Below, one piece after another: positions 27,293 through 37,787 of a stretch of 64,000 nucleotides of DNA. Source of the stretch: Escherichia phage teqdroes. Position numbers and translations under genes: made by a program. Location: sequence record NC_054932.1. One strand, given 5' to 3'. Within the stretch, counting starts at the first letter, position 1, and each line of letters begins with the position of its first letter. The notes beneath the pieces are model-generated. The model saw only the letters and a program-made list of their open reading frames with translations, searched no databases and was not told where the DNA came from.

Positions 27293-27601
27293 ATGAAACT
27301 GACAACTGAGCAGAAAGTAGCAATTCGTGAAATTTTGAAAACTAAATTGTCCATGGGTATTTCAAACGTGGTTTTTGAAAAGTCTGATGGTACTATTCGT
27401 ACTATGAAAGGCACCCGTGATGCTGACTTTATGCCAACTATGCAAACCGGTAAATTGACTGAATCTACTCGGAAAGAATCTACTGATATGATTCCGATAT
27501 TTGATGTTGAACTCGGTGCATGGCGAGGTTTTTCTATTGACAAATTGATTTCCGTTAATGGCATGAAAGTTGAGCATTTGCTTCAATTTATTGGTAAATA
27601 A
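27293..27601 (+). CDS. Hypothetical protein, 102 aa (31.1-like position)
   Basis: ORF track. Confidence 0.55.
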   Translation: MKLTTEQKVAIREILKTKLSMGISNVVFEKSDGTIRTMKGTRDADFMPTMQTGKLTESTRKESTDMIPIFDVELGAWRGFSIDKLISVNGMKVEHLLQFIGK

Positions 27602-27602
27602 A

Positions 27603-27627
27603 TGCTTTAAGAATTATTTGTTATTAT
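27603..27627 (+). promoter_or_regulatory. MotA-dependent middle promoter upstream of gene 31
   Basis: MotA box TGCTTTA 27603-27609, 12-bp gap, TATTAT 27622-27627. Confidence 0.5.
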
Positions 27628-27657
27628 TAATTCATCTGTTAACAAAAAGGAAAAACG

Positions 27658-27993
27658 ATGTCTGAAGTACAACAGCTACCAATTCGTGCTGTCGGTGAAT
27701 ATGTTATTTTAGTTTCTGAACCTGCGCAAGCCGGTGATGAAGAAGTTACAGAATCAGGACTTATTATTGGTAAACGTGTCCAAGGTGAAGTTCCTGAACT
27801 GTGTGTAGTTCACTCTGTTGGTCCTGATGTTCCTGAAGGTTTCTGCGAAGTTGGTGATTTGACTTCTCTTCCAGTTGGTCAAATTCGAAACGTTCCGCAT
27901 CCTTTTGTAGCTCTAGGTCTTAAGCAGCCAAAAGAAATTAAACAAAAATTTGTTACCTGTCACTATAAAGCTATTCCGTGTCTTTATAAGTGA
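27658..27993 (+). CDS. 31: Co-chaperonin gp31 (GroES analogue for capsid folding), 111 aa
   Basis: [61 protein letters not shown]... recognised as T4 gp31. Confidence 0.95.
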
Positions 27994-28001
27994 TATAAAT
28001 A
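27994..28001 (+). promoter_or_regulatory. Late promoter motif (TATAAATA) upstream of rIII
   Basis: TATAAATA directly after gene 31 stop, ~120 bp upstream of rIII ATG. Confidence 0.5.
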
Positions 28002-28119
28002 ATAATATGAATTGAGTTTCAATTCTATGTGGTAGTCTACAACTGAGAGATCTGTCGAAAGAAGATGAAATTCAGAAGAACGTGACTACCGAGTTTTAAT
28101 CTCTAACGAGAATTTTTAA

Positions 28120-28368
28120 ATGATTAAACAATTACAACACGCTCTTGAACTGCAACGAAACGCATGGAATAATGGTCACGAAAACTATGGCGCATCTATT
28201 GATGCTGAAGCCGAAGCTCTTGAAATCCTGCGTTATTTCAAACATCTGAATCCTGCTCAAACTGCATTAGCTGCTGAGCTTCAGGAAAAAGATGAACTTA
28301 AATATGCTAAGCCTCTGGCTTCTGCCGCACGAAAAGCAGTTCGTCACTTTGTGGTAACACTGAAGTAA
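28120..28368 (+). CDS. rIII: rIII lysis-inhibition accessory protein, 82 aa
   Basis: MIKQLQHALELQRNAWNNGHENYGASID... recognised as T4 rIII; 82 aa. Confidence 0.9.
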   Translation: MIKQLQHALELQRNAWNNGHENYGASIDAEAEALEILRYFKHLNPAQTALAAELQEKDELKYAKPLASAARKAVRHFVVTLK

Positions 28369-28562
28369 TTTATTGGAGAGTCACTGCCTTAGTGTGAAGT
28401 TAAAACGAGGAGCCGTCGAACTTTGTTTTACGGTGTACCTCTTGAATGTTGACGAGGTTTATGGTTATCCTGTCGGTAAATATTCAAAACCTAAGTACCC
28501 CTTGAGGGCTTGCGCAGGCAATGCCAATAAGTCCTGCATTTTCATTTAAAAGAGAATTTATA

Positions 28563-28739
28563 ATGGCAAAACAAGCTAAAGCAAAGAAAGCAGTTGAAAA
28601 GAAAGTTGGTGATTCTAAACGCGCTGGTTACAAGCGTGGGTCGAACTCTCGTATCAATCAAACTGTTGAGAAGATCATGCGCCGAGCACGTGCGGTTCTT
28701 CGAGATGATGCTTCTCGTTTTGGTAAGCAGAAAGCATAA
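28563..28739 (+). CDS. Small basic protein, 58 aa (30.9-like position)
   Basis: ATG at 28563 (MAKQAKAKKAVEKKVGDSKRAGYKRG...); track alternative start 28521; followed by UUCG hairpin terminator. Confidence 0.5.
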   Translation: MAKQAKAKKAVEKKVGDSKRAGYKRGSNSRINQTVEKIMRRARAVLRDDASRFGKQKA

Positions 28740-28742
28740 GTT

Positions 28743-28772
28743 AAGGACTCCTTCGGGAGTCCTTTTTATTTT
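28743..28772 (+). terminator. Intrinsic terminator (UUCG tetraloop hairpin + U-run)
   Basis: AGGACUCC-UUCG-GGAGUCCU followed by UUUUAUUUU. Confidence 0.75.
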
Positions 28773-28791
28773 CCAAAGATTGCACAAAGTT

Positions 28792-28821
28792 GTTTACAGT
28801 ATGGCTCCTTTGTGATAGTAT
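28792..28821 (+). promoter_or_regulatory. Early promoter (GTTTAC-N18-TAGTAT)
   Basis: GTTTAC 28792-28797, TAGTAT 28816-28821; inverted repeat CTCCTTTGTG...CAAAGGAG overlaps the downstream SD. Confidence 0.55.
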
Positions 28822-28848
28822 TATCTTACACAAACAAAGGAGAATAAA

Positions 28849-29217
28849 ATGAAAATCAATCTTAACTCATACATCAAAGGTAAAGACCACGACGGCTATA
28901 AAGCTATCGAAACTAAAGAACTTCAGTGGCACTTATACAAAGAACAATTTGAATTTGTAGGTTGCATGACTCCTGAAGGTCCTTCTGATGATTTCTCTTG
29001 GAAAATAATGTTAACTAACTTTTTTACTGGAGATACATACGAATTAAAAACTTTGATTCTTGGTAAAATTCGCTGTGAGACTTATGAAGATAAAGAAACT
29101 GGTTACTCTGAAGATGTTACGTGGTATCAAAATGGTCGTATTACCGCTGACCTCTTGATTGAAAAAATGAAAGCCAAAGGTGAATTAAATTTAGATAATT
29201 GGATTAAAGTTGCATAA
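28849..29217 (+). CDS. Hypothetical protein, 122 aa
   Basis: ORF track; SD AAGGAG; downstream of early promoter 28792-28821. Confidence 0.6.
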   Translation: MKINLNSYIKGKDHDGYKAIETKELQWHLYKEQFEFVGCMTPEGPSDDFSWKIMLTNFFTGDTYELKTLILGKIRCETYEDKETGYSEDVTWYQNGRITADLLIEKMKAKGELNLDNWIKVA

Positions 29218-29221
29218 AATA

Positions 29222-29250
29222 GTTTACTTTGGTACAGGATATGATATTAT
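29222..29250 (+). promoter_or_regulatory. Early promoter (GTTTAC-N17-TATTAT)
   Basis: GTTTAC 29222-29227, TATTAT 29245-29250; GGTACAGG...CCTGTACC dyad. Confidence 0.55.
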
Positions 29251-29287
29251 ATACCTGTACCGCAATTAAACATCTTGGAGAATAAAA

Positions 29288-29653
29288 ATGAATTACATCA
29301 ACTTTGAACGTAAATATGTTTCTAACGGTATTGCAGGTTCTATTGATACTATCTGCCTTTGGAAACATCAAAATGGATCAGTATGCGAAATTGAACAGTA
29401 TATGACTCCTAACTACGTTTATATGCGATTTGAAAATGGCATCACGGTTTCAATCACGAAAGAAGGTTCTTCTTTTAAAATCGCATTGGATGATGATTTT
29501 CGTCAACGCGATTTAGGGACTCATCCTTGCTGGAATGGCGTTAATCGCAAGCTTCTGGTTAAAACTTGGATTCGTCATATTCTGAGTAACAGAGCTAAAC
29601 CTGAGCATCTTGAAGCAATCTTTGATGTAGTTCTTAACGAATTTGATATTTAA
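29288..29653 (+). CDS. Hypothetical protein, 121 aa
   Basis: ORF track; SD GGAGA; downstream of early promoter 29222-29250. Confidence 0.6.
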   Translation: MNYINFERKYVSNGIAGSIDTICLWKHQNGSVCEIEQYMTPNYVYMRFENGITVSITKEGSSFKIALDDDFRQRDLGTHPCWNGVNRKLLVKTWIRHILSNRAKPEHLEAIFDVVLNEFDI

Positions 29654-29662
29654 AATAAAATG

Positions 29663-29679
29663 AGGGGCTTCGGCCCCTT
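29663..29679 (+). other. Intercistronic UUCG tetraloop hairpin
   Basis: GAGGGGC-UUCG-GCCCCUU. Confidence 0.55.
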
Positions 29680-29694
29680 ACTGAGGTAAATACT

Positions 29695-29982
29695 ATGTTT
29701 ATGACTACTTATTTTGATACCCGCAAAAATTTCTGTGAAGTGGTTTTCTCTAAGGCACCTAAAGACCTTCCTGCTCATTTGCAGCCTACTAGTGAATCGA
29801 TTAAAAACTATGTTAATATAGTCTGCCCTTTAGAGTTCCGTACTGTAAATGGCCGCGATACTTTAGCTATCACTAAACTTAATCGTGAAATTGACATTGA
29901 CCCTTCAATTGCGCGTGAAATTAACATTTCTGATATTGGCGGCGGTAATGTTAAATCGCATGGTTTTCAGATGAGGTTCTAA
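29695..29982 (+). CDS. Hypothetical protein, 95 aa
   Basis: ORF track. Confidence 0.55.
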   Translation: MFMTTYFDTRKNFCEVVFSKAPKDLPAHLQPTSESIKNYVNIVCPLEFRTVNGRDTLAITKLNREIDIDPSIAREINISDIGGGNVKSHGFQMRF

Positions 29983-30179
29983 TGAAATTCTTTTTAGGTC
30001 AAACTGTTGAATTAAAGGGAGTTGGTATACCTGGATTAATTTCTAAGGTTCTACCTCCATTTAAATGGAGTGGTATTCAAATAAAAGAGGCTTATATTGT
30101 TTCCTGGGTAGATGGAAATGAAGACCTTCGTATGGGTGATGAATTATCTCCTATCTACGGATTAAAGGAATTAGTATGA
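29982..30179 (+). CDS. Hypothetical protein, 65 aa
   Basis: ORF track; ATGA coupling. Confidence 0.5.
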   Translation: MKFFLGQTVELKGVGIPGLISKVLPPFKWSGIQIKEAYIVSWVDGNEDLRMGDELSPIYGLKELV

Positions 30180-30382
30180 ATATAATTAATAAGATTTTTG
30201 GAATTCAGTACATTAAGGTCACATATAAAGTAACAGATAAAAATCCGTATACTGATGAACACGAAGAACCACAAGTTAAGTCTATTATATTAGAAAAGGA
30301 CCCTAACTGGCCAGTTGAATTTCGTCTTCCTTGCTATGGTCATTGGGCTGATGTTGAAATTATAAGTATTGAAAATGTCTGA
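30176..30382 (+). CDS. Hypothetical protein, 68 aa
   Basis: ORF track; ATGA coupling. Confidence 0.5.
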   Translation: MNIINKIFGIQYIKVTYKVTDKNPYTDEHEEPQVKSIILEKDPNWPVEFRLPCYGHWADVEIISIENV

Positions 30383-30833
30383 GCTAGAGATAAGAAGCAA
30401 TTTTAGATGGCCATCATGTGCATTAAGTAATTTCGCCCAATGGCCTTTCGTTATGGATGGTATTCAATTTGGAGGTCTTGAAGGATTCCTCCAAGGGTGT
30501 AAGGTGAAAAATGTTGAACAACAACGTCGTATATTTGGGTTATCCGGGCTTGCCGCCCAACAAGCTGGAAGGTCTTATGCTAGAGCTCAGGACCGTGGGA
30601 CCCTCTTCTGGCTTGGAGTTCCGTTTTCAAGATACTCCCCGGCGTGGAAAGAATTATACACAAATGCATATTTTGAAGCAGCGATCCAAAACAAGGGCTT
30701 TCGTGATGCATTACAAGCCTCGAAAGGAAAAGTTTTGAAGCACAGCATGGCTAGTGGTCTAACAAAAGATGATACAATACTAACCGAAGCTGAATTTATT
30801 GATGTGTTAAATCTATTAAGAGACTCTCTATGA
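30369..30833 (+). CDS. NADAR / YbiA-like (DUF1768) domain protein, 154 aa (30.3-like)
   Basis: Motif LSNFAQWPF...GIQF...LEGFLQGCK and C-terminal TEAEFIDVLNLLRDSL resemble E. coli YbiA family signature (SNFA.WP...E..FQA.K) as recalled from memory. Confidence 0.65.
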   Translation: MKMSELEIRSNFRWPSCALSNFAQWPFVMDGIQFGGLEGFLQGCKVKNVEQQRRIFGLSGLAAQQAGRSYARAQDRGTLFWLGVPFSRYSPAWKELYTNAYFEAAIQNKGFRDALQASKGKVLKHSMASGLTKDDTILTEAEFIDVLNLLRDSL

Positions 30834-31666
30834 AGCCTACTATTTTAACTGATATTGATGGAGTATGTTTAAGCTGGCAATCAGGCCTTCCTTATTTTGC
30901 TCAGAAATATAATCTTCCGTTAGAACATATTTTAAAAATGATCCAAGATGAGAAATTTATTTCTCCGGGTAAACTCTTTAATTGCGATGAAGAACTTGGC
31001 GTCAAGTTAATTGAAAAATACAATCGTTCAGATTTTATTCGTTATTTGTCTCCATATAAAGACGCCCTGTGCGTAATTAACAAATTAAAAGAAGATTATA
31101 ATTTTGTAGCTGTTACAGCGTTGGGTGATTCTATTGACGCTCTGTTGAATCGTCAATTTAATTTGAATGCTCTTTTTCCTGGTGCCTTCTCAGAAGTAAT
31201 GATGTGTGGTCATGATTCTTCAAAAGAAGAGTTGTTCAAAAAGGCAAAAGAGAAATATAACGTAATTTGTTATATTGACGATCTCGCTCACCACTGCGAT
31301 CATGCGAGTGAAATATTACGTGTTCCTGTGTATTGGATGGCTCGAGGGGAACGTGACAGTATTCCAAAAACCGCTCAGCGAGTTTATACATGGAACGATG
31401 TAGAGAATAAGCTTTTTTCACCAAAGGAAAATAAAGAAAGTTTTGATAGTGAAAAAGCTATAAAAGATGTAATTGAAAAGATGATTAAAAATGATTCTTT
31501 TCGTTGGAACACTACCTGGAGAACTCCTGGATTTAATCCTTATAATCCATATCATCCATATCAGACACATCCGTTTCAGACATGGAACTATATTAAACCT
31601 GGTGGCATAGAGTATTTGTATAATAGACCTACTAGTGGTGATAATATTTTCCAAGGAGCATTCTAA
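30830..31666 (+). CDS. HAD-superfamily hydrolase / nucleotidase-like protein, 278 aa (30.2-like)
   Basis: N-terminal motif I TDIDGV (DxDG), later acidic motif YIDDL; aromatic/Pro-rich C-terminal tail (NPYNPYHPYQTHPFQTWNY). Confidence 0.6.
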   Translation: MKPTILTDIDGVCLSWQSGLPYFAQKYNLPLEHILKMIQDEKFISPGKLFNCDEELGVKLIEKYNRSDFIRYLSPYKDALCVINKLKEDYNFVAVTALGDSIDALLNRQFNLNALFPGAFSEVMMCGHDSSKEELFKKAKEKYNVICYIDDLAHHCDHASEILRVPVYWMARGERDSIPKTAQRVYTWNDVENKLFSPKENKESFDSEKAIKDVIEKMIKNDSFRWNTTWRTPGFNPYNPYHPYQTHPFQTWNYIKPGGIEYLYNRPTSGDNIFQGAF

Positions 31667-31935
31667 TGTTTGTTGTTCACACTATTTATGAAAATGAAGG
31701 TAATACTACACGTGATTACGGTCACGTAAATCAATTTTTTAGATGCAATCCAGAATTCCGAGCTCAAAAAGACGAACGAATTTTTAAAAAATGTGTAGAG
31801 CAAGGTTTCATTTACGTCAAACACTGGATGCAAGGAAATAAAGTTAGAACCACGTACCATAGGTCTTTGACTGAGCTTAATGATGAATTGATTTATAATA
31901 GAGCTGTAAACCAAACTCTAAAGGATGAACAATGA
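31666..31935 (+). CDS. Hypothetical protein, 89 aa (30.1-like position)
   Basis: ORF track; coupled to gene 30. Confidence 0.5.
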   Translation: MFVVHTIYENEGNTTRDYGHVNQFFRCNPEFRAQKDERIFKKCVEQGFIYVKHWMQGNKVRTTYHRSLTELNDELIYNRAVNQTLKDEQ

Positions 31936-33395
31936 TTCTTAAAATTCTGAACGAAATAGCATCTATTGGTTCAACTAAGCAGAAGCAAGCAATTCTTGAA
32001 AAGAATAAAGATAATGAATTGCTTAAACGAGTATATCGTCTGACTTATTCTCGTGGGTTGCAGTATTATATCAAGAAATGGCCTAAATCTGGTATTGCTA
32101 CCCAGAGTTTTGGAATGTTGACTCTTACCGATATGCTTGACTTCATTGAATTCACGTTAGCTACTCGGAAATTGACTGGAAATGCGGCAATTGAGGAATT
32201 AACTGGATATATCACTGATGGTAAAAAAGATGATGTTGAAGTTTTGCGTCGAGTGATGATGCGAGACCTTGAATGTGGTGCTTCAGTATCTATTGCAAAC
32301 AAAGTTTGGCCAGGTTTAATTCCTGAACAACCTCAAATGCTCGCAAGTTCTTATGATGAAAAAGGCATTAGTAAGAATATCAAATTTCCAGCCTTTGCAC
32401 AATTAAAAGCAGATGGAGCTCGGTGTTTTGCTGAAGTTAGAGGTGATGAATTAGATGATGTCCGTCTTTTATCACGAGCTGGTAATGAATATCTAGGATT
32501 AGATCTTCTTAAGGAAGAGTTAATCAAAATGACCGCTGAAGCCCGCCAGATTCATCCAGAAGGTGTGTTAATTGATGGCGAATTGGTATACCATGAGCAA
32601 GTTAAAAAGGAGCCAGAAGGCCTAGATTTTCTTTTTGATGCTTATCCTGAAATTAGTAAAGCTAAAGAGTTTGCTGAAGTAGCTGAATCACGTACTACTT
32701 CTAATGGAATCGCTAATAAATCTTTAAAGGGAACTATTTCAGAAAAAGAAGCTCAATGCATGAAGTTTCAGGTCTGGGATTATGTTCCGTTGGTAGAAAT
32801 ATACGGTCTTCCAGCATTTCGTTTAAAATATGATGTACGTTTTTCTAAATTAGAACAAATGACATCAGGATATGATAAAGTAATTTTAATTGAAAACCAA
32901 GTAGTAAATAACCTAGATGAAGCTAAGGTAATTTATAAAAAGTATATTGACCAAGGTCTTGAAGGTATTATTCTCAAAAATATCGATGGATTATGGGAAA
33001 ATGCTCGTTCAAAAAATCTCTATAAATTTAAAGAAGTAATTGATGTTGATTTAAAAATTGTAGGAATTTATCCTCACCGTAAAGACCCTACTAAAGCAGG
33101 TGGATTTATTCTTGAGTCAGAGTGTGGAAAAATTAAGGTAAATGCCGGTTCAGGCTTAAAAGATAAAGCCGGCGTAAAATCACATGAACTTGACCGTACT
33201 CGCATTATGGAAAACCAAAATTATTATATTGGAAAAATTCTAGAGTGCGAATGCAACGGTTGGTTAAAATCCGATGGCCGCACTGATTACGTTAAATTAT
33301 TTCTTCCGATTGCGATTCGTTTACGTGAAGATAAAACTAAAGCTAATACATTCGAAGATGTATTTGGTGATTTTCATGAGGTAACTGGTCTATGA
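31932..33395 (+). CDS. 30: ATP-dependent DNA ligase, 487 aa
   Basis: Length equals T4 ligase; adenylation motif KADGAR (AQLKADGARCF). Confidence 0.96.
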   Translation: MILKILNEIASIGSTKQKQAILEKNKDNELLKRVYRLTYSRGLQYYIKKWPKSGIATQSFGMLTLTDMLDFIEFTLATRKLTGNAAIEELTGYITDGKKDDVEVLRRVMMRDLECGASVSIANKVWPGLIPEQPQMLASSYDEKGISKNIKFPAFAQLKADGARCFAEVRGDELDDVRLLSRAGNEYLGLDLLKEELIKMTAEARQIHPEGVLIDGELVYHEQVKKEPEGLDFLFDAYPEISKAKEFAEVAESRTTSNGIANKSLKGTISEKEAQCMKFQVWDYVPLVEIYGLPAFRLKYDVRFSKLEQMTSGYDKVILIENQVVNNLDEAKVIYKKYIDQGLEGIILKNIDGLWENARSKNLYKFKEVIDVDLKIVGIYPHRKDPTKAGGFILESECGKIKVNAGSGLKDKAGVKSHELDRTRIMENQNYYIGKILECECNGWLKSDGRTDYVKLFLPIAIRLREDKTKANTFEDVFGDFHEVTGL

Positions 33396-33580
33396 AAGCT
33401 TACTTAGAAACAATTGTCGTGGCTCAAAAAGAAGGTGGAGATGTTTCTACTTCTGTATCACAAATCATGATTGAATTTATAGATGCATATGCTTATAATA
33501 AATTCACAGAAACTTTTGATGCTTATGAAAAAGGTCCAAAGTTTGAAATATATCGTACTCTCTTACCAATAGATTATTAA
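33392..33580 (+). CDS. Hypothetical protein, 62 aa
   Basis: ORF track; ATGA overlap with ligase stop; followed by UUCG hairpin. Confidence 0.45.
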   Translation: MKAYLETIVVAQKEGGDVSTSVSQIMIEFIDAYAYNKFTETFDAYEKGPKFEIYRTLLPIDY

Positions 33581-33603
33581 AGGCCTTCGGGCCTTTAATT
33601 TTA
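33579..33603 (+). terminator. Hairpin (UUCG tetraloop), weak terminator upstream of alt
   Basis: AAAGGCC-UUCG-GGCCUUU followed by AAUUUUA. Confidence 0.5.
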
Positions 33604-33629
33604 TAAATAGAATAAACACTAGAGAGGCT

Positions 33630-35726
33630 ATGATGGAACTTATTACAGAATTATTTGACGAAGATACTACTCTTCCGATTACAAACTTAAATCCAAAGAA
33701 GAAAATACCGCAAATTTTTTCAGTTCGTGTTGATGATGCAATTGAACAACCAGGCTTTCGTTTATGCACCTATACATCTGGAGGTGATACTAATCGCGAT
33801 TTAAAGATGGGCGATAAAATGATGCATATTGTTCCTTTTACATTAACTGCCAAAGGTTCAATTGCTAAATTAAAAGGTCTCGGTCCAAGCCCAATTAATT
33901 ATATCAATTCAGTTTTTACTGTTGCAATGCAAACAATGCGTCAGTATAAAATTGATGCTTGTATGCTTCGTATTCTTAAGTCTAAAACCGCTGGTCAAGC
34001 TCGACAAATTCAAGTTATTGCTGATAGACTTATCCGTAGTCGTTCAGGTGGCAGATACGTCCTTCTTAAGGAACTCTGGGATTATGATAAAAAGTATGCA
34101 TATATTCTTATACATCGCAAAAATGTATCACTAGAAGACATTCCAGGAGTTCCGGAAATTAGTACCGAGCTCTTTACTAAAGTTGAATCGAAAGTCGGCG
34201 ATGTTTATATCAATAAAGATACTGGAGCTCAAGTAACTAAAAATGAGGCAATTGCAGCATCTATTGCACAAGAAAATGATAAACGTTCTGACCAAGCTGT
34301 AATCGTTAAAGTTAAAATTTCCCGTAGAGCAATTGCGCAAAGTCAATCATTGGAATCTTCTAGATTTGAAAGTGAATTATTCCAGAAGTATGAATCTACC
34401 GCAGCTAATTTCAATAAACCTGCTACCGCTCCTTTAATTCCCGAAGCAGAAGAAATGAAACTTGGAATTAATTCATTAGCTTCTAAAACTAAGGCAGCAA
34501 AAATTATTGCCGAAGGAACCGCAGATGAACTTCATTATGACTATAAATTCTTTTCAAAAAGTGAGGTTAATGAAGTTTCTGAAAAAATTAAAGATGTAAT
34601 TCTTAATGCGATTAAAAATGAACCGACTACTTCAATAAAATGTTTAGAGAAATACGCAGCAGCTGTTAATCAATTATTTGAAGAATATAAAGATAATTGG
34701 CTTGATAAACATAATAAAACCCGTAAAGGACAGCCAGATGAAGTCTGGGAAGAAATGACTAAAAATTCCTGGAACGCAGCAAAAACTAAATTCCTCAAAA
34801 GAATGATTTACAGCTTTTCTGGAATTGGTGCAGGTCCAATGATTGATATTACTATTGCCCGTGATGGTTCTAAATATACTCCATCACAAAAGCGCGGCAT
34901 TAGAGAGTATTGTGGTTCAGGATATACTGACATCAATAATCTTCTTTTGGGTCGTTACAATCCAGAACGATATGATGTAATGAGTGAAAAAGAAATTGAA
35001 TCTGCTATAAATAACTTAGATTCAGCTTTTGAAAACGGTGACCGTATACCAGAAGGCATTACAGTTTATCGTGCTCAAAGCATGACTGCTCCTATATACG
35101 AAGCACTAGTTAAAAATAAAGTGTTCTATTTCAGAAATTTTGTATCTACTTCTTTAACTCCTATCATTTTTGGACGTTTTGGAATTACGCATACTGGTAT
35201 TGGTCTTTTAGAACCAGAAGCTCGTAATGAATTGACAGTTGATAAAAATGAAGAAGGAATAACTATTAATCCAAGCGAAATAAGAGCGTATAAAGAAAAT
35301 CCTGAATACGTTAAAGTTCAAATAGGATGGGCAATTGATGGAGCTCATAAAGTTAATGTTGTATATCCAGGAAGTCTCGGAATAGCAACAGAAGCTGAAG
35401 TTATTCTACCGCGCGGATTGATGGTCAAAGTTAATAAAATAACTGATGCTTCTAATAATGACGGAACAACATCTAATAATACAAAACTCATTCAAGCTGA
35501 AGTTATGACCACAGAAGAACTCACCGAATCAGTAATCTATGACGGAGACCATTTAATGGAAACTGGTGAATTGGTTACAATGACAGGTGATATTGAAATA
35601 GAAGACAGAGTTGACTTTGCATCATTTGTTTCATCAAATGTTAAACAAAAAGTAGAATCATCTCTTGGAATTATTGCGTCTTGCATAGATATTGCAAACA
35701 TGCCTTACAAGTTCGTTCAAGGATAA
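33630..35726 (+). CDS. alt: Alt ADP-ribosyltransferase (packaged internal protein), 697-698 aa
   Basis: N-terminus MELITELFD (I-T-E site for prohead protease), ART motifs YRAQ, STS, EAEVILPRG; size close to T4 Alt (682 aa). Confidence 0.9.
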   Translation: MMELITELFDEDTTLPITNLNPKKKIPQIFSVRVDDAIEQPGFRLCTYTSGGDTNRDLKMGDKMMHIVPFTLTAKGSIAKLKGLGPSPINYINSVFTVAMQTMRQYKIDACMLRILKSKTAGQARQIQVIADRLIRSRSGGRYVLLKELWDYDKKYAYILIHRKNVSLEDIPGVPEISTELFTKVESKVGDVYINKDTGAQVTKNEAIAASIAQENDKRSDQAVIVKVKISRRAIAQSQSLESSRFESELFQKYESTAANFNKPATAPLIPEAEEMKLGINSLASKTKAAKIIAEGTADELHYDYKFFSKSEVNEVSEKIKDVILNAIKNEPTTSIKCLEKYAAAVNQLFEEYKDNWLDKHNKTRKGQPDEVWEEMTKNSWNAAKTKFLKRMIYSFSGIGAGPMIDITIARDGSKYTPSQKRGIREYCGSGYTDINNLLLGRYNPERYDVMSEKEIESAINNLDSAFENGDRIPEGITVYRAQSMTAPIYEALVKNKVFYFRNFVSTSLTPIIFGRFGITHTGIGLLEPEARNELTVDKNEEGITINPSEIRAYKENPEYVKVQIGWAIDGAHKVNVVYPGSLGIATEAEVILPRGLMVKVNKITDASNNDGTTSNNTKLIQAEVMTTEELTESVIYDGDHLMETGELVTMTGDIEIEDRVDFASFVSSNVKQKVESSLGIIASCIDIANMPYKFVQG

Positions 35727-35729
35727 ATC

Positions 35730-37787
35730 ATGGAACTTATTACAGAATTATTTGACGGCGCTTCGGCGCCGGTTGTTAACTTAAATCCTAAGCATAAAAT
35801 ACCTCAAATTTTTGCTATTCAAGCCGGCGAAGAAAGTGTGCTTCCTGGATTTAGATTTTGTACATACACCTCTGGCGGTGATACAAATAAAAACGTTAAG
35901 CCGGGCGATAAAATGATGCATATCGTAATGATAGGTGTCAACGAGAAATTATCGCTGGTTAAGCTTAGAAACTTGGGTGGAAATCCAATTGGCGTCATTA
36001 ATGCTGTTTTTGATACTGCTCTTCAAACAATGAAACAGTATAAAATCGACGCATGCCTATTCCGCGTACTAAAGAGTAAAACAAATGGCGCAGCTCGTCA
36101 AATGCAAGTTATTGCTGACCGTTTAGTACGTACTAAAGGAGCAGGTCGATATGTTCTCTTAAAGGAAATCTGGGACTATGATAAGAAATATGCATATATT
36201 ATGGTTTACCGTAAAAATGCCAATTTAGAAGACATTCCAGGTGTACCTCCTATTTCAACTGAGTTATTCACAAAAGTTGAATCAAAGGTTGGTGATGTTT
36301 ATGTAGACGTTAAAACAGGTAATGCTGTTCCTAAAGCTGTTGCTGTTGCTGCTTCTATTGCTTTAGAAAATGATAAGCGCACGGATCAAGCTGTTATTCA
36401 GAAAACTAAAATTAGTCGTCGATTAGCAGCACAAGCTCAATATTCTACTGTTGATGCTTCACTTCAGGGTGATAGCTTCGCCGCTAAGAAATATCAAGAG
36501 TTTGAATCTAAAGTTCCGGTATATAAAGCAGAAGGACCAATGAACTCCGGGGTTATCCAGATTGGTTCAAACTTCGGCAAAGGAGCTATCGGTGGTATGA
36601 GAAGTGCTTCTCGTTTTAAATCTAGTGATTATGAACTAGAAAGCTTCCGAAATCATATTGCATTAGCCCATGCACGTTTACGTGATCCATCTATCAAGTT
36701 GCAGAGCGATATAACATATCAAGGTTCTCAAGAATATTTAAAGAATAAAGAATTCTTTGATTATAAAACTGATAAAATTTTAAGCGATCTTGCTGACATT
36801 AATATTTCTAATAGCTTTGATGTTATTAAGAAAATTATTAATGATTTAGTTAAAGGTTCTAAAGCTACGCCAGATGAAAAGACAGCTATTATTCAATTTG
36901 TCATGAATGGCATTTATAAATTGATTAATGAATCTGCTGCCCAGGCATATGAATACGCAAGCACCGAAGTAACTCCAAAAGGATTAACCCAAGCTGAATC
37001 TGATGTAATTGAAGATTATTGTGCAGATTCATATGTTGAAATGAACTCGTTCCTTTTGGGTAAACCAGATTCTACCCGTGAAGAATATATGGAACGAGCT
37101 ATTAAGCACATCGAGACGTTGGATTCTGCCTTTGCCAAAGGATCAGTTCTTCCTCCAGGAACTACACTTTACCGTGGACAAGAAGTTACCTTTAAAACTT
37201 TGCGTCATAACATTGAAAACAAAATGTTCTATTTCAAGAACTTCGTATCGACATCACTTAAACCAAATATCTTCGGTGAGCATGGTAAAAACTATATGGC
37301 TCTAGATGATTCCGGCGCAGTATTTTCTGGCGAAGGAGAAGGTTCCGTTGATGCAGAAGATTTAATGCATATGGGTAGTCATTCTACATATGCCATTGAA
37401 GATGCTGAAACTAGCGTGGGTATGGTAATTAAAGGAGCTGAGCGAATCAAAGTTATCGTTCCAGGTCATTTATCAGGATTTCCATCAGAAGCTGAAGTTA
37501 TTCTACCGCGTGGAATTTTACTGAAGATTAATAAAGTAAGTACGTACTTTATGAAAGAAACTGCTTATAACAAGTATCTAATCGAAGGTACAATCGTTCC
37601 TCCTTCTGAACAATTAGAAGAATCAGTATATGATGGCGACCATTTAATGGAAACTGGTGAAGTTCGTCCAATGGCTGGATTTAATCAATTCCTTGTAGAA
37701 GAATCAAAAGAAGAGGAAAACGAAGTTTCTCAAATCTTGGCTTCTTTGGTTAACATCAACGGAATGTCTAAAAAGTTCAAGATGTAG
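35730..37787 (+). CDS. Alt-like ADP-ribosyltransferase paralog, 685 aa
   Basis: Same N-terminal MELITELFD, conserved first ~230 aa and C-terminal ART motifs (YRGQ, STS, EAEVILPRG), divergent middle. Confidence 0.85.
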   Translation: MELITELFDGASAPVVNLNPKHKIPQIFAIQAGEESVLPGFRFCTYTSGGDTNKNVKPGDKMMHIVMIGVNEKLSLVKLRNLGGNPIGVINAVFDTALQTMKQYKIDACLFRVLKSKTNGAARQMQVIADRLVRTKGAGRYVLLKEIWDYDKKYAYIMVYRKNANLEDIPGVPPISTELFTKVESKVGDVYVDVKTGNAVPKAVAVAASIALENDKRTDQAVIQKTKISRRLAAQAQYSTVDASLQGDSFAAKKYQEFESKVPVYKAEGPMNSGVIQIGSNFGKGAIGGMRSASRFKSSDYELESFRNHIALAHARLRDPSIKLQSDITYQGSQEYLKNKEFFDYKTDKILSDLADINISNSFDVIKKIINDLVKGSKATPDEKTAIIQFVMNGIYKLINESAAQAYEYASTEVTPKGLTQAESDVIEDYCADSYVEMNSFLLGKPDSTREEYMERAIKHIETLDSAFAKGSVLPPGTTLYRGQEVTFKTLRHNIENKMFYFKNFVSTSLKPNIFGEHGKNYMALDDSGAVFSGEGEGSVDAEDLMHMGSHSTYAIEDAETSVGMVIKGAERIKVIVPGHLSGFPSEAEVILPRGILLKINKVSTYFMKETAYNKYLIEGTIVPPSEQLEESVYDGDHLMETGEVRPMAGFNQFLVEESKEEENEVSQILASLVNINGMSKKFKM

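Follow-up and report, generated by a model that had tools for sequence, protein, structure and literature searches.

A NADAR gene (adfN, T4 gene 30.3) and an adjacent HAD-family gene (30.2) upstream of the DNA ligase gene of a T4-like phage

Gene content of the locus

We analysed a DNA stretch of 64,000 nucleotides (the window), which corresponds to a T4-like phage genome (Tequatrovirus). Bases 30000-32000 share 99.2% identity with Escherichia phage vB_Eco_EH2, and at least 80% of this interval is spanned by 493 phage records, nearly all of which are Escherichia or Shigella Tequatrovirus. Comparison of the ORF map with the T4 annotation showed that the T4 gene order from 30.5 to 30 is reproduced gene for gene, with every gene on the + strand:

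29982..30179, + strand, gene 30.5 (ORF map against the T4 annotation)
30176..30382, + strand, gene 30.4, 68 aa, directly upstream of adfN; phrog_2042, a family without functional annotation
30375..30833, + strand, adfN (T4 gene 30.3), 152 aa; Pfam PF08010 and T4 identity
30511..30738, + strand, 30.3', 75 aa, an ORF that lies within adfN in a different frame (ORF list), annotated in T4 as an internal translation product (NP_049817)
30830..31666, + strand, gene 30.2, 278 aa; phrog_420
31666..31935, + strand, gene 30.1 (DUF3045); Pfam PF11243, E = 2.9e-64
31932..33395, + strand, gene 30, DNA ligase; ORF and T4 annotation

A sequence-only reading of the window had placed two of these ORFs, of 154 and 278 aa, on the + strand at 30369-31666, and both are found there with the motifs that it quoted. 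The first ORF (30369..30833) contains LSNFAQWP, GIQF and EGFLQGCK, and a reading from the TTG at 30369 does give 154 aa. The T4 annotation and the published numbering of E36 and K43 start instead from the ATG at 30375, for a protein of 152 aa, and the TTG is then an alternative upstream start.

Neighbouring genes from 30.5 to 30 overlap successively by 1-8 nt. The stop codon of 30.4 overlaps the start of adfN by 8 nt, the 30.3/30.2 junction is a 4-nt ATGA overlap, and start and stop codons also overlap along 30.2, 30.1 and the ligase gene 30, the last two being the conserved downstream neighbours of 30.2. In our scan of positions 27500-34000, the stretch from 30.5 to the ligase gene showed no convincing terminator, and the genes along it are thus probably co-transcribed. 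The same region held 24 promoter-like sites, when 21.6 were expected from shuffled sequence, and thus showed no excess of such sites.

Two Alt ADP-ribosyltransferase ORFs, which had also been pointed out from the sequence, lie in tandem at 33630..35726 and 35730..37787; they are 41% identical to each other and both match PF03496.

AdfN, the product of gene 30.3

Comparison of the adfN product with T4 gp30.3 showed that 151 of the 152 residues are identical and that the sole difference is conservative (M125 in the window, I125 in T4). The window gene has the same length as the T4 gene and occupies the same place between 30.4 and 30.2; E36, K43, H123 and the C-terminal helix are shared, and no difference was found besides residue 125. 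This helix is intact (residues 138-151 in the model) and the protein ends in ...LNLLRDSL, as in T4. The codons of the catalytic residues were checked in the window:

30426..30434, + strand, SNF motif
30480..30482, + strand, E36
30501..30503, + strand, K43
30741..30743, + strand, H123

AdfN matches the whole of the Pfam family PF08010, Phage_30_3 (E = 2.3e-70, profile positions 1-138 of 138), and its direct Pfam scan gave no match to the general NADAR model, PF08719. The family profile, made from 50 relatives of AdfN, matched E. coli YbiA (2B3W) with an E-value of 0.0074 and aligned the SNF...E...K pattern, including the Glu and the Lys, while Pfam NADAR was matched by six of these 50 relatives (best E = 1.5e-7). 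Alignment of the 50 sequences showed that E36 and H123 are invariant and that K43 is present in at least 90% of them.

Single-sequence searches of the PDB gave nothing significant for either AdfN or gp30.2. The AF2 model of AdfN (pLDDT 93.3, pTM 0.89) has a NADAR alpha+beta fold, and its only Foldseek matches in the PDB with a probability above 0.1 were 2b3w (YbiA), 8bau (PnNADAR of Phytophthora, with ADP-ribose) and 8bat (a DarT-linked NADAR of Geobacter), all of which are NADARs. The closest structure was YbiA, of the PF08719 family (E = 1.4e-4, TM 0.68), and the fold was shared with the NADAR of Geobacter lovleyi (8BAT), a DarG1-type antitoxin, at a Foldseek probability of 0.97. The proposal that the first ORF encodes a NADAR enzyme is thus upheld by the PF08010 match, by fold matches to NADARs only and by the presence of E36, K43 and H123.

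The sequence-only reading had named the absence of NADAR and HAD profile matches, or the loss of the conserved catalytic residues, as results that would contradict it. Taken literally, the first of these is nearly what the direct Pfam scans returned, but family profiles and predicted structures, on which both the NADAR assignment of AdfN and the HAD assignment of gp30.2 rest, recover the two proteins. As for the second, the catalytic residues of both proteins are kept on alignment. PADLOC gave no match for AdfN or gp30.2, and NCBIfam likewise yielded nothing useful for the two proteins.

Function of AdfN

The activity of T4 gp30.3 has been described in two publications. Cihlova et al. (2024) reported that gp30.3 removes ADP-ribose from the guanines of DNA by hydrolysis in vitro and that a His at the third catalytic position marks the phage NADARs (PMC11125620), whereas the enzymes of the YbiA type have a Glu at this position (PMC11125620). 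Johannesman et al. [quoted passage not shown] The E36A and K43A substitutions weaken AdfN, and the adfN allele of RB69, which is 15 residues shorter, is defective, the C-terminal helix being required (PMC11825919). T4 AdfN was fully active only in the course of a T-even infection, a T-even factor being needed for its full activity; the NADARs of Bas32 and Bas60 act alone (PMC11825919). In infections by T5 and Bas25, as in uninfected cells, the T4 protein lacks this activity.

AdfN shares with the NADARs of the DarG1 type the removal of ADP-ribose from guanine (PMC11125620, PMC11825919). Unlike the DarT-linked NADARs, it has no DarT partner, lacks their N-terminal extension and carries a His where they carry an Asp, and it fails to rescue uninfected cells from DarT1 toxicity (PMC11125620, PMC11825919). 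No DarT partner gene lies next to adfN in the window, its neighbours being 30.4 and 30.2. AdfN is an orphan antitoxin-like enzyme and not a member of a toxin-antitoxin pair of the DarT1-NADAR (DarTG1) kind.

At 99% identity with the experimentally characterised T4 protein, AdfN of the window phage would be expected to have the same function. As a stand-alone NADAR, it would act on phage DNA modified by the DarT1 toxin of the host and cut the N-glycosidic bond that links ADP-ribose to guanine; this removal of ADP-ribose would allow phage replication to proceed and the DarTG1 defence to be defeated. The ADP-ribosyl-guanine made by DarT-type toxins had been put forward as a NADAR target from the sequence, and it was later shown to be one for T4 gp30.3 (PMC11125620, PMC11825919). 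Since the reversal of this modification by the product of this very gene was published in 2024-2025, our analysis brings nothing new for the NADAR.

The catalytic domain of gp30.2

The gene 30.2 product is identical to its T4 counterpart at 273 of 278 residues and matches phrog_420 (E = 9.6e-94). This match, like that of AdfN to PF08010, is well beyond what chance would give. Its N-terminal sequence, encoded from 30830 (gene 30830..31666), starts with MKPTILTDIDGV. The features of the protein, with residue numbers in brackets, are encoded as follows:

30830..31420, + strand, catalytic domain (1-197), predicted HAD phosphatase fold with a helical cap (about 16-71)
30851..30859, + strand, motif I (D8/D10)
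30875..30877, + strand, family-conserved aromatic residue (W16)
31115..31117, + strand, motif II (T96)
31223..31225, + strand, motif III (K132)
31277..31282, + strand, motif IV (D150-D151)
31421..31666, + strand, C-terminal extension (198-278) and stop codon
31604..31633, + strand, G259 to T268 of the end peptide GGIEYLYNRPT (258-268)

The direct Pfam scan of gp30.2 gave noise only, with no HAD family and no NT5C among the matches. Thiamine pyrophosphokinase models appeared with E-values of 0.19 and 0.017; they fell far short of their curated cut-offs and were rejected as noise. Family searches recovered 1362 representatives at E <= 0.001. Two alignments of the family, a close one of 44 sequences and a distant one of 65, have D8, D10, R108 and K132 without exception; T96, D150 and D151 reach at least 90% conservation in the close alignment, and W16 does so in at least one of the two. 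The AlphaFold model, which is confident over residues 1-200, gave 111 Foldseek matches at E <= 1e-3, and all among the matches listed have the HAD fold.

The Rossmann-like core fold and the presence of all four motifs (DxD, S/T, K and DD) identify gp30.2 as a true HAD-superfamily hydrolase by sequence and model, in agreement with the assignment made from its DIDGV motif. The subfamily is given more softly. The profile of the distant family matched 3BWV over its full length (E = 2.3e-6) and then pyrimidine and xanthosine nucleotide phosphatases; Pfam NT5C was matched by 30 of the 65 distant relatives and the generic HAD model by 14. These relations suggest that gp30.2 is closest to the 5'(3')-deoxyribonucleotidase (NT5C) branch, PF06941, from whose solved members (human cdN and mdN, and 3BWV of S. 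epidermidis) it differs in having an 80-residue tail and with which it shares 13-20% identity. A helical cap after motif I is typical of the HAD phosphatases that act on small molecules. On motifs, fold and family relations, our best guess for gp30.2 is a nucleoside-monophosphate phosphatase: it would be a Mg-dependent, capped, NT5C-like HAD enzyme, whose substrate is most likely a nucleoside monophosphate or another small phosphoester of this kind. Our literature search, including deoxyribonucleotidase together with bacteriophage T4, found no biochemical report on gp30.2. Naming this protein, which is "hypothetical" in the T4 annotation, as a HAD phosphatase of a nucleotidase-like branch is a small but useful addition.

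The position of 30.2 allows another reading. Among the 78 viral loci with a 30.2 homologue, 74 carry a DNA ligase gene no more than 10 kb away, mostly a few hundred bases downstream. This linkage could hint at a role in end healing, in which gp30.2, as a 3'-phosphatase, would make nicks ready for the DNA ligase encoded next to it in the way that the HAD domain of T4 Pnkp serves RNA ligase. The adjacency may, however, be no more than a gene order inherited within one virus family. T4 Pnkp acts on polynucleotide ends, and its 3'-phosphatase domain has no counterpart to the cap that is inserted after motif I of gp30.2 (residues 16-71), the match between the two being limited to a core of 125-129 residues. 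Nucleotide phosphatases, those of the NT5C type included, are the sequence-specific relatives of gp30.2. In view of its cap domain and of these relatives, we ranked the end-healing role below that of a nucleotidase and consider it quite improbable.

The C-terminal tail of gp30.2

The sequence-only reading had described an unusual aromatic- and proline-rich tail on this HAD-family protein, and the final 55 residues indeed hold 14 aromatic residues and seven prolines. The tail consists of a short helix (about residues 207-220), a disordered stretch rich in Trp, Tyr, Phe and Pro, and the end peptide GGIEYLYNRPT. Disorder is predicted for residues 225-278, with pLDDT values below 50 at residues 225-235 and 241-278.

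The tail is not a constant of the family, since it is missing in 41 of 100 cluster representatives. In 17 of the 100, as in the window protein with its GGIEYLYNRPT, a motif of the GxEYLxxxPT type stands 15-19 residues before the C-terminus; other tails end in peptides of the LRAYY/LRATF or LLG/LLN types. The linker varies and the short motif at its end is conserved, a combination that suggests a docking peptide, and we speculate from these sequences that the end peptide may dock the enzyme to a partner protein.

Phenotype and synteny of 30.3 and 30.2

The sequence-only reading had proposed that the NADAR and the phosphatase form a two-enzyme module for counter-defence or nucleotide repair. In such a module, gp30.2 would process the product of AdfN or would potentiate AdfN, and would then be the T-even factor. 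Three observations speak for this: the two genes are adjacent, with overlapping stop and start codons; they lie close together in a number of other phages; and T4 AdfN is reported to need a factor (PMC11825919). We compared it with the published HIDEN-SEQ transposon screen of T4, control versus DarTG1 (Data S6; bioRxiv 10.1101/2025.11.20.689424), and with the gene order at related loci.

The HIDEN-SEQ data showed that insertions in 30.3 are strongly depleted on DarTG1 (log2FC -7.25), whereas insertions in 30.2 are not (log2FC -0.12, p = 0.61, adjusted p = 1.0, 71 TA sites). Genes 30.3 and 30.4 were the only significant ones on DarTG1 (Data S6). On E. coli K-12, all 72 of the 72 TA sites of 30.2 were hit, which makes the gene non-essential, and 30.2 was also neutral in the minimal medium M9 (log2FC -0.10). 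Neither growth on K-12 nor resistance to DarTG1 requires 30.2, as far as a single-gene transposon screen on one host can tell; such a screen would miss a contribution of gp30.2 that is subtle or redundant.

Synteny gave a similar picture. A 30.3 homologue was found within 10 kb of 30.2, and indeed at no more than 1.3 kb, in 35 of the 78 loci; these belong to several genera and include phages with only about 40-46% identity. The remaining 43 of the 78 loci have no 30.3 within 10 kb. Conversely, 61 of 80 loci of 30.3 hold distant homologues without a 30.2 gene within 10 kb. Several complete T4-like genomes carry 30.2 and 30.3 tens of kilobases apart, and in the phages whose two genes are separated, 30.2 stays with the ligase gene and 30.3 has another place in the genome. 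Clustering of the neighbours of the 61 distant 30.3 homologues revealed no real gene that recurs in more than six loci, the largest clusters being spurious ORFs that overlap 30.3 itself. These counts indicate that the adjacency of 30.3 and 30.2 in T4 is a local gene order and not a conserved partnership.

The neutral phenotype of 30.2, the loci that hold one gene without the other and the ability of the Bas32 and Bas60 NADARs to work alone (PMC11825919) make a NADAR-phosphatase module highly improbable, and for DarTG1 in T4 this reading is largely refuted. It follows that gp30.2 can be dropped as a candidate cofactor of AdfN. Very probably, adfN and 30.2 are two independent early genes of a T4-like phage, co-transcribed and translationally coupled but forming no functional pair, the first encoding an anti-DarT1 NADAR and the second a HAD phosphatase. 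The original observation is confirmed: the reading of each protein was right and their pairing was wrong, and the finding, although real, is an ordinary one and for the most part known already. The additions made here, namely the HAD naming of gp30.2, its variable tail of a putative docking type and its linkage to the ligase gene, are modest overall.

Gene 30.4 and the T-even factor

Insertions in 30.4 were depleted on DarTG1 (log2FC -1.79, adjusted p = 0.014) and unaffected in the comparison of LB with M9 (-0.05) in the HIDEN-SEQ data. This raises the question of whether the two-part unit lies upstream of adfN and not downstream of it, with the 68-aa gp30.4 as a T-even-specific potentiator of AdfN. 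The position of 30.4, which is kept directly upstream of 30.3 in Tequatrovirus-like and Mosigvirus-like loci, agrees with such a role, as does its being the only gene besides 30.3 with a significant depletion. On the other hand, no 30.4 homologue was detected next to the distant 30.3 genes, and a partial depletion also fits a polar effect. There is no obvious Shine-Dalgarno sequence ahead of the adfN ATG; given this and the overlap of 30.4 with adfN, insertions in 30.4 are expected to lower the translation of AdfN. The depletion of 30.4 on DarTG1 is therefore, on the layout of the two genes, more likely to be polar, and we regard a potentiator role for gp30.4 as unlikely.

A broader scheme, in which gp30.4 is the T-even factor of AdfN while gp30.2 is a separate, ligase-linked phosphatase that is docked through GIEYL..PT and needed only outside K-12 conditions, is unlikely as a whole. 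Within the 30.x cluster, gp30.4 nevertheless emerges from the screen as a candidate for the T-even helper of AdfN.

Linkage of gene 30.2 to the DNA ligase gene

Among the 78 viral loci (L082-L159) carrying a homologue of gene 30.2, which encodes a HAD-superfamily hydrolase, 74 had a DNA ligase gene at a distance of 10 kb or less, the counterpart in the window being positions 30830..33395. The 30.2 homologue was mostly located a few hundred bases 5' of the ligase gene, and the gene between them, 30.1, was present in some loci and absent in others. The ligase-linked loci came from phages of Escherichia, Klebsiella, Acinetobacter, Aeromonas, and Vibrio. This linkage was much tighter than that of 30.2 to 30.3 (adfN, the gene of the anti-DarTG1 NADAR DNA ADP-ribosylglycohydrolase).

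The product of gene 30.2 contains a conserved terminal peptide:

31604..31633 (gp30.2 residues 259-268), GIEYLxxxPT

This peptide was placed 15-19 residues before the C-terminus and ended a disordered tail that is otherwise variable. Other 30.2 lineages carried the end peptides LRAYY, LRATF, ALLGM, or YVLLN, or had no tail, and GIEYLxxxPT looks like a putative exchangeable docking motif.

Variation of adfN and its upstream neighbour

The 30.3 gene calls of the T-even phages SV76, vB_Eco_NR1, UGJNEcP4, and vB_EcoM-RPN226 (P0107, P0116, P0117, and P0151) were shortened or split, at 86-109 aa, and resembled the defective allele of RB69. The recurrence of such calls in several T-even phages suggests, at the level of sequence, that adfN was lost repeatedly in this group. 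An N-terminal extension in some members of the 30.3 family is indicated since the 30.3 PHROG profile (phrog_652) has 296 positions, of which the window protein aligns to 126-272 only, and since some relatives are 201 aa long (P0131 and P0133). Two further reading frames overlap adfN:

30176..30382, + strand, gene 30.4, upstream neighbour of adfN
30511..30738, + strand, 75-aa ORF inside adfN in a different frame, corresponding to T4 30.3'

The T4 annotation describes 30.3' as an internal translation product. The 3' end of 30.4, with its stop codon, shares 8 nt with the beginning of adfN. In the T4 transposon screen HIDEN-SEQ, adfN and 30.4 were the only genes significantly depleted on DarTG1 (log2FC of -1.79 and adjusted p = 0.014 for 30.4), while 30.4 insertions were neutral when LB was compared with M9 (bioRxiv 10.1101/2025.11.20.689424). 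The depletion of 30.4 on DarTG1 can be read in two ways: as polarity of the insertions, or as a pointer to gp30.4 as a candidate AdfN cofactor, that is, the T-even factor needed for full AdfN activity.

Flanking features

A strong terminator-like hairpin was located just 3' of a 30.9-like ORF (28521..28739), and two Alt-like genes were found in tandem:

28743..28764, + strand, hairpin with a 9-pair stem and a downstream T run
33630..35726, + strand, Alt-like ADP-ribosyltransferase gene 1, 698 aa, PF03496
35730..37787, + strand, Alt-like ADP-ribosyltransferase gene 2, 685 aa, PF03496

Judged from the hairpin sequence, genes 30.8 to 30 may form a transcription unit of their own that begins at this point. 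The two Alt-like proteins were 41% identical to each other. The HIDEN-SEQ annotation table lists a single alt gene of such size here in T4 (bioRxiv 10.1101/2025.11.20.689424).
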